Source of the DNA: Escherichia phage vB_EcoM_G2469
Direction: 5' to 3' (one strand)
DNA length: 64,000 nucleotides
Sequence record: MK327934.1
Shown here: in pieces, positions 45,126 through 45,581 of the stretch
Layout: each line of letters begins with the position of its first letter
How positions within the stretch are numbered: the stretch's first letter is position 1
Made by a program: the position numbers and the translations under genes
The notes under the pieces: generated by a model
The model's database searches: none
What the model was told of the DNA's origin: nothing
What the model saw: the letters and a program-made list of their open reading frames with translations, nothing else

Positions 45126-45581
45126 TTATTTTAGATCTTCGGCCCAATCTAGTTTTAAGGGTTCTTTGTATTCACGGTCGAGAATAACCGGAATAGCTAC
45201 ATCACCACTGAATGATAGTTGGCCAACGTTATATGATAACGTTATATGTGGAGTGTAGTCGTCGAAATCATGAGTAGCACCTAAAGCCCGTGCATACTGA
45301 TGACGACATCTAAGATATTCAGAATCAAGAACTAAAACCAGTACAGCGCCGTCGTCAGTTTTCCATACCTCAAAGTGCCCTGATTCAGCAACAGAATAAC
45401 TACCACTAGATGTAGTATATGGTATGTTTACACGCGAATAACAAATCGTTGAATGAAGCTTTTCACGTGGTACTGGATTAGGAATTCTTAATTTACGCTG
45501 GAGGTCTTCCAGCGCATCAAGTGTTAATTCTGAAAACTTAGCTGCGACGTAGAGGCCTTGTGAAAAGTCCTCAAATTTCAT
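45126..45581 (-). CDS. 57B: 2H-phosphoesterase family protein, T4 57B/Acb1-like (anti-CBASS cyclic-nucleotide nuclease)
   Basis: 151 aa; two H-x-T/S motifs ([17 protein letters not shown]); directly adjacent to 57A as in T4. Confidence 0.7.

Follow-up and report, generated by a model that had tools for sequence, protein, structure and literature searches.

Does the small gene beside 57A in Escherichia phage vB_EcoM_G2469 encode an enzyme that destroys the signals of bacterial immunity, or another kind of 2H phosphoesterase? The question is raised by an ORF of 151 aa in the window (the whole stretch of DNA that was analysed, 64,000 nucleotides of sequence record MK327934.1), for which the original prediction had proposed a 57B/Acb1-like 2H phosphoesterase with an anti-CBASS/Pycsar function. 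In T4-infected cells, the 3'3'-cGAMP-degrading activity has been traced by activity-guided fractionation to the product of gene 57B, which was named Acb1, and the deletion of 57B abolishes this activity (Hobbs et al., Nature 2022; PMC9117128). The ORF at 45126..45581 is almost certainly the Mosigvirus orthologue of T4 57B/Acb1, and its product would be an anti-CBASS 2H phosphodiesterase, with an activity that is deduced from homology. Such a gene is already known: Acb1 was described in 2022, the family is represented in Pfam and by crystal structures, and the exact protein of this phage is present in dozens of Mosigvirus genomes.

Gene Order and Source of the Locus

The window can be assigned to Mosigvirus-type T-even coliphage DNA. 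The 2.3-kb neighbourhood of the gene is 99.9% identical to Escherichia phage AV109 (Straboviridae, Tevenvirinae, Mosigvirus), and a 24-kb stretch is 98% identical to related coliphages, for example vB_Eco_F27 and mogra. The genes of the locus are the following.

45816..46550, minus strand: gene 1 (dNMP kinase), 244 aa; profile match with E=1.2e-96
45581..45811, minus strand: gene 57A (tail-fibre assembly chaperone), 76 aa; Pfam GP57, E=5.9e-23
45126..45581, minus strand: acb1 (predicted orthologue of T4 gene 57B), ATG start, 151 aa, intact frame
44735..45046, minus strand: internal head protein gene, PHROG 2667; promoter TTTACA-17-TAnnnT with TG at 45111..45083
44410..44685, minus strand: internal head protein gene, PHROG 7673; promoter TTTACA-17-TAnnnT with TG at 44734..44706

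In this phage, gene 1 is the first member of a tightly packed block 1-57A-acb1, with a gap of 4 nt between gene 1 and 57A and an overlap of one base between the TAA stop of 57A and the ATG of acb1. Genes for the tail-tube-family protein gp3, the DNA-end protector gp2 and gp4 are located upstream of gene 1, and the whole order trna.4 / IP gene(s) / 57B / 57A / 1 / 3 / 2 / 4 matches that of T4. The ORF had been said to lie next to 57A, exactly at the place of T4 57B, and this position is confirmed by the T4 order 4-2-3-1-57A-57B. In T4, acb1 likewise follows gene 1 and 57A and is itself followed by an internal-protein gene that has an early-type promoter of its own. The two phages differ in details: the window Acb1 is one residue shorter than T4 Acb1 at the N-terminus, and the start codon overlaps the 57A stop as TAATG in the window and as ATGA in T4. 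Past the acb1 stop and a spacer of 79 nt, two other internal head protein genes follow in the window, whereas ipI follows in T4; no homologue of T4 ipI (an inhibitor of GmrSD restriction) was found in the window, where these two small genes are present instead. As a separate observation, the segment 44410..45046 on the minus strand, which adjoins acb1, looks like a variable, anti-restriction locus of injected proteins.

Homology to Acb1 Proteins

The Pfam family PF23474 (Anti-CBASS protein Acb1) matches the 151-aa protein with E=1.3e-58 and 197.3 bits, the cut-off being 27 bits, and the match extends over residues 8-149 of the protein and over positions 1-144 of the 144 positions of the profile. 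An NCBIfam scan of the same protein gave no match. The alignment to T4 Acb1, which had been suggested as a check on the gene's identity, bears it out: BLASTP against T4 57B (NP_049750.1, with the sequence for the alignment taken from NC_000866) finds 129 of the 151 residues identical (85%), with 92% positives, no gaps and E=2e-102. At the codon level, the comparison with T4 gives a pS of 0.68, a dS of about 1.7 (saturated) and a dN of 0.126, and the resulting dN/dS of 0.07 shows acb1 to be a genuine gene on which purifying selection acts strongly.

The original prediction had been built on two H-x-[TS] motifs, and a motif scan of the protein finds these two only, H43-S-T45 and H112-I-T114, exactly as they had been quoted (HST at 43-45 and HIT at 112-114). 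Taken alone, the pair is weak evidence that does not exceed chance, because at least two such motifs are also present in 8 of the 94 ORFs of at least 100 aa found in the six frames of the window, and the density of the motif in the ORFs of this size is 0.29 per 151 aa; the pair had thus pointed to the right answer on a basis that was rejected here. The Acb1 call is a prediction from sequence that is carried by the profile match, the direct alignment and synteny, and at this level the homology is far beyond chance.

Among solved structures, the closest is that of Acb1 from Erwinia phage FBB1 (7T26/7T27; crystal structure at 1.1-Å resolution), matched with E=1.1e-58 and with 62.9% identity across 140 aligned residues. 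An identity of this order to a solved structure implies the same fold. A compact 2H phosphoesterase fold can therefore be predicted for the window protein from the 63% identity and the E=1e-58 to 7T26; the single-sequence AlphaFold2 model of the 151-aa protein had a mean pLDDT of 37 and a pTM of 0.27, too low to be of use.

Catalytic and Binding Residues

The functional residues of Acb1 are known from published work, in which Y12, W74, F107 and W147 stack on the bases, E141 contacts the adenine N6, residues 145-152 form a lid above the ligand, and the tetrad H44, T46, H113 and T115 performs an acid-base catalysis that needs no metal and passes by way of a cyclic phosphate (PMC9117128). T4 57B carries Y12, H44, T46, W74, F107, H113, T115, E141 and W147 at exactly the numbers published by Hobbs et al. 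(2022), and at each of these nine positions the window protein has the same residue, with a numbering offset of -1. Their predicted counterparts are listed below.

H43, T45, H112 and T114: catalytic tetrad of the acb1 product (T4 equivalents H44, T46, H113 and T115)
Y11, W73, F106 and W146: base-stacking residues of the acb1 product
E140: adenine-N6 contact of the acb1 product
LDWAEDLK: C-terminal lid of the acb1 product

Compared with T4 Acb1, the catalytic tetrad, the stacking aromatics, the glutamate E141 and the lid tryptophan are identical, and the lid itself shows a single conservative change (LDWAEDLK in the window protein, LDWADDLK in T4). None of the 22 differences between the two proteins falls on the nine functional residues, and most of them are conservative (E3K, K5E, T9Q, E27D, S31K, V34I, I43L, V54I, V57T, P58T, F63Y, E64S, S67E, L71F, Q77D, S80A, T81V, M96Q, P122Q, Q130A, V134I and D149E). 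The identity of the nine residues, together with the fact that the 22 substitutions avoid them, suggests that the window protein acts like T4 Acb1. The FBB1 protein has the HxT/HxT tetrad in common with the window protein; unlike it, FBB1 Acb1 carries a one-residue insertion past the central beta-hairpin, and it has F and Y at the positions of T4 W74 and F107, which are still aromatic, while the window protein has the T4 residues. Similarity to a distant Acb1 of 165 aa (PDB 9Q2G/9Q2Y) is marginal (E=0.007), although both H-x-T motifs align. At the subfamily level, the sequence comparisons place the window protein neither with this distant Acb1 nor with the LigT/PF13563 proteins. In every feature by which the Acb1 family can be recognized from a sequence, the window protein agrees with the family, and the proposal of a 57B/Acb1 2H phosphoesterase with an anti-CBASS function is fully supported by the profile, the alignment, the catalytic and substrate-binding residues and synteny.

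The RNA Ligase Label

In public records, this gene is a 'hypothetical protein' in most GenBank entries and a 'cyclic phosphodiesterase' in a few of them, and the name 'RNA ligase' is used in PHROG-derived records and in many RefSeq phage records; among the matches listed in public records, the name Acb1 is absent. The label 'RNA ligase' implies a different enzyme, namely a 2'-5' RNA ligase of LigT type or a cyclic phosphodiesterase of the 2H group that would act on RNA ends, for example in tRNA repair, and would not be a nuclease of immune signals. In fact, PHROG 755, which is labelled 'RNA ligase', matches the window protein with E=2.4e-65, and a phage tRNA cluster is situated near acb1, with two tRNA genes in the window.

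43334..43408, minus strand: tRNA-Met, found by ARAGORN and Rfam
43157..43233, minus strand: tRNA-Arg(tct), found by ARAGORN and Rfam

Profiles of the LigT/2'-5' RNA ligase families (PF13563 and PF02834) gave no match above the cut-off, and only PF13563 (2_5_RNA_ligase2) was seen at all, as a weak likeness to the wider 2H superfamily around the second motif (residues 70-131; E=0.013 and 15.9 bits against a cut-off of 27 bits). This match is about 180 bits weaker than that of Acb1, and the identity as a LigT-type RNA ligase was rejected on these profile scores. An enzyme of RNA ends would also be at odds with the T4 orthologue, which is the fractionated cGAMP-degrading activity that is lost on deletion (PMC9117128), and with the retention of all the residues for cyclic oligonucleotides (the four stacking aromatics, E141 and the lid). 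A role on RNA ends is thus highly improbable, and the label most likely says no more than that both kinds of enzyme belong to the 2H superfamily.

Predicted Specificity for CBASS

The Acb1 identity that is favoured here bears on the double function that had been proposed, 'anti-CBASS/Pycsar', of which the CBASS part stands and the Pycsar part fails. Apyc1 resembles Acb1 in strategy, both being phage nucleases that degrade cyclic nucleotides used as immune signals; on the other hand, it has an unrelated MBL fold, a Zn-dependent HxHxDH chemistry and cyclic mononucleotides as substrates (PMC9117128). For the window protein, no MBL-family match was obtained in Pfam at E values up to 10, and the HxHxDH motif is absent from the 151-aa sequence. 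The addition of Pycsar cannot be sustained, because the fold, chemistry and substrates of Apyc1 are unrelated and without similarity to the window protein. Published specificity data, on which the anti-Pycsar reading was rejected, agree: Acb1 is specific to CBASS and Apyc1 to Pycsar (Hobbs et al., 2022; PMC9117128). In the source data of Fig. 4b of that work, cUMP treated with Acb1, which leaves it intact, activates PycTIR like untreated cUMP (both about 1.3 million RFU), whereas cUMP treated with Apyc1 gives about 0.11 million RFU (PMC9117128).

Proposed Mechanism

The mechanism proposed for the window protein is taken over from T4 and FBB1 Acb1. In its crystal structures, apo (7T26) and with 3'3'-cGAMP (7T27), FBB1 Acb1 has a compact 2H phosphoesterase fold, and T4 Acb1 and nine homologues have been reported to cleave cyclic di- and trinucleotides that contain adenosine, without need of a metal, and to rescue phage from CBASS (PMC9117128). 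The cut falls 3' of adenosine and yields GpAp, and rings larger than three bases (cA4) are not accepted (PMC9117128). During infection, the enzyme of this phage would bind CBASS messengers with at least one adenosine, such as 3'3'-cGAMP, cUA, cAA, cAAA and cAAG, and the ligand would be recognized by the four stacking aromatics and by the glutamate that reads the adenine N6, with the C-terminal lid shutting over it. By HxT/HxT acid-base catalysis, the 2'-OH of the adenosine would then attack the 3'-5' bond to form a 2',3'-cyclic phosphate intermediate, whose hydrolysis would leave a linear 3'-phosphate product, for example GpAp. Once the signal is gone, the CBASS effectors would stay inactive, abortive infection would be avoided and the phage would replicate. 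For the window gene, we infer the enzymatic activity, the substrate range, the anti-CBASS effect in vivo and the transcription pattern.

A gene of this kind may also be a burden, and phages have been found to lose acb1 under Panoptes pressure: a nonsense mutation is known in Bas43, and point mutations of acb1 are known from derivatives of Bas35 that escape type II Panoptes. An allele with 22 substitutions relative to T4 might accordingly be a case of decay or retuning, with its activity lost or its substrates changed, for instance under selection by Panoptes-type guards. Against this, the frame is full-length, the catalytic and binding residues are intact and the changes are mostly conservative, and both the dN/dS given above and the complete identity of the protein in more than 50 independent isolates point the same way. 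Intact frame and residues, low dN/dS and invariance among isolates together indicate a maintained function, and decay or retuning of this kind is scarcely credible. For the functional Acb1 that is preferred here, quantitative substrate preferences could differ from those of T4 Acb1, given the 22 differing positions. That the Mosigvirus substitutions retune the substrates, for example toward a better cleavage of 3'2'-cGAMP, or cut the activity on the decoys cA3/2',3'-c-di-AMP, is improbable; if true, a retuned allele would keep its anti-CBASS activity with less exposure to Panoptes-type guard systems.

Expression Signals

The gap of 4 nt and the overlap of one base within the block suggest a single transcription unit with translational coupling, and gene 1, 57A and acb1 are most likely co-transcribed and translationally coupled. 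The promoter-like elements around the unit are as follows.

46575..46603, minus strand: extended -10 element TGTTATAAT upstream of gene 1, conserved with T4
46166..46173, minus strand: T4 late-promoter consensus TATAAATA, extended TATAAATAATAT, within the coding sequence of gene 1
45083..45111, minus strand: sigma-70-like promoter TTTACA-17-TACTAT with TG before the -10 hexamer, just past the acb1 stop, conserved in T4

The region 46575..46603 is a candidate middle or early promoter for a 1-57A-acb1 transcript. In T4, a MotA-box-like AATGCTTCA is located 12 nt upstream of the -10 element, whereas its counterpart in the window is degenerate (TCGCTTCTA); middle-mode activation of the promoter upstream of gene 1 may differ between the two phages. 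The late-promoter consensus inside gene 1 is perfectly conserved, in both its short and its extended form, at the equivalent place of T4 (5006..5013 on the minus strand of the T4 stretch compared), with divergent surroundings, and is a possible late transcription start for 57A-acb1. In T4 infection, the cyclic-nucleotide-degrading activity appears at about 15 min (Hobbs et al., 2022; PMC9117128). At the other end, the predicted promoter at 45083..45111 shows where the acb1 unit ends and would drive the next gene, that of an internal head protein.

The last codons of gene 1, just before the ribosome-binding site of 57A, contain a terminator-like hairpin at 45847..45863 (GGCTCTT-TAG-AAGAGCT, with a T-rich tail behind it), which shows an apparent compensatory synonymous change relative to T4. 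This hairpin is probably meaningless, because its folding energy does not surpass that of shuffled sequence (z of -1.3 for the window and of +0.9 for T4).

Distribution and Use

More than 50 deposited genomes encode the 151-aa protein with 100% identity, and in 137 records the identity is at least 99%. By tblastn, homologues are seen in 1,469 phage records, from phages of Escherichia to those of Klebsiella, Acinetobacter, Aeromonas and Vibrio. The 57 phages whose lysates were originally screened by Hobbs et al. (2022; PMC9117128) include one that encodes the identical protein, vB_EcoM_MM02. In that screen as a whole, lysates of T4-related coliphages degrade CBASS signals (PMC9117128). The practical value of the present assignment lies in annotation, where the label 'RNA ligase' is misleading, and in the choice of phages. 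For example, a phage in which Acb1 is intact and is accompanied by an Acb2 homologue should, by prediction, withstand many CBASS systems, and guard systems (e.g., Panoptes) that sense the loss of cyclic nucleotides may also be effective against it.

Other Features of the Window

Another anti-CBASS gene is apparent at some distance from the locus.

30455..30721, minus strand: homologue of the Acb2/Vs.4 sponge, 88 aa, 65.5% identity to T4 Vs.4

It matches Pfam PF24729 (Acb2_Tad1_hairpin) with E=4e-18 and is flanked, as in T4, by vs.3 and regB on one side and by ipII/ipIII homologues on the other. With homologues of both Acb1 and Acb2 in the window, the phage would therefore have the two known anti-CBASS proteins of T4, a nuclease and a sponge, a pair that has been shown to be complementary in T4. 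Finally, the match of the window to AV109 is exact down to about 43335 and breaks off abruptly there (AV109 stretch compared, 2801..3201), and AV109 has an annotated tRNA-Asn at the place of the tRNA-Arg of the window; the tRNA cluster therefore contains a junction of recombinant or mosaic type.
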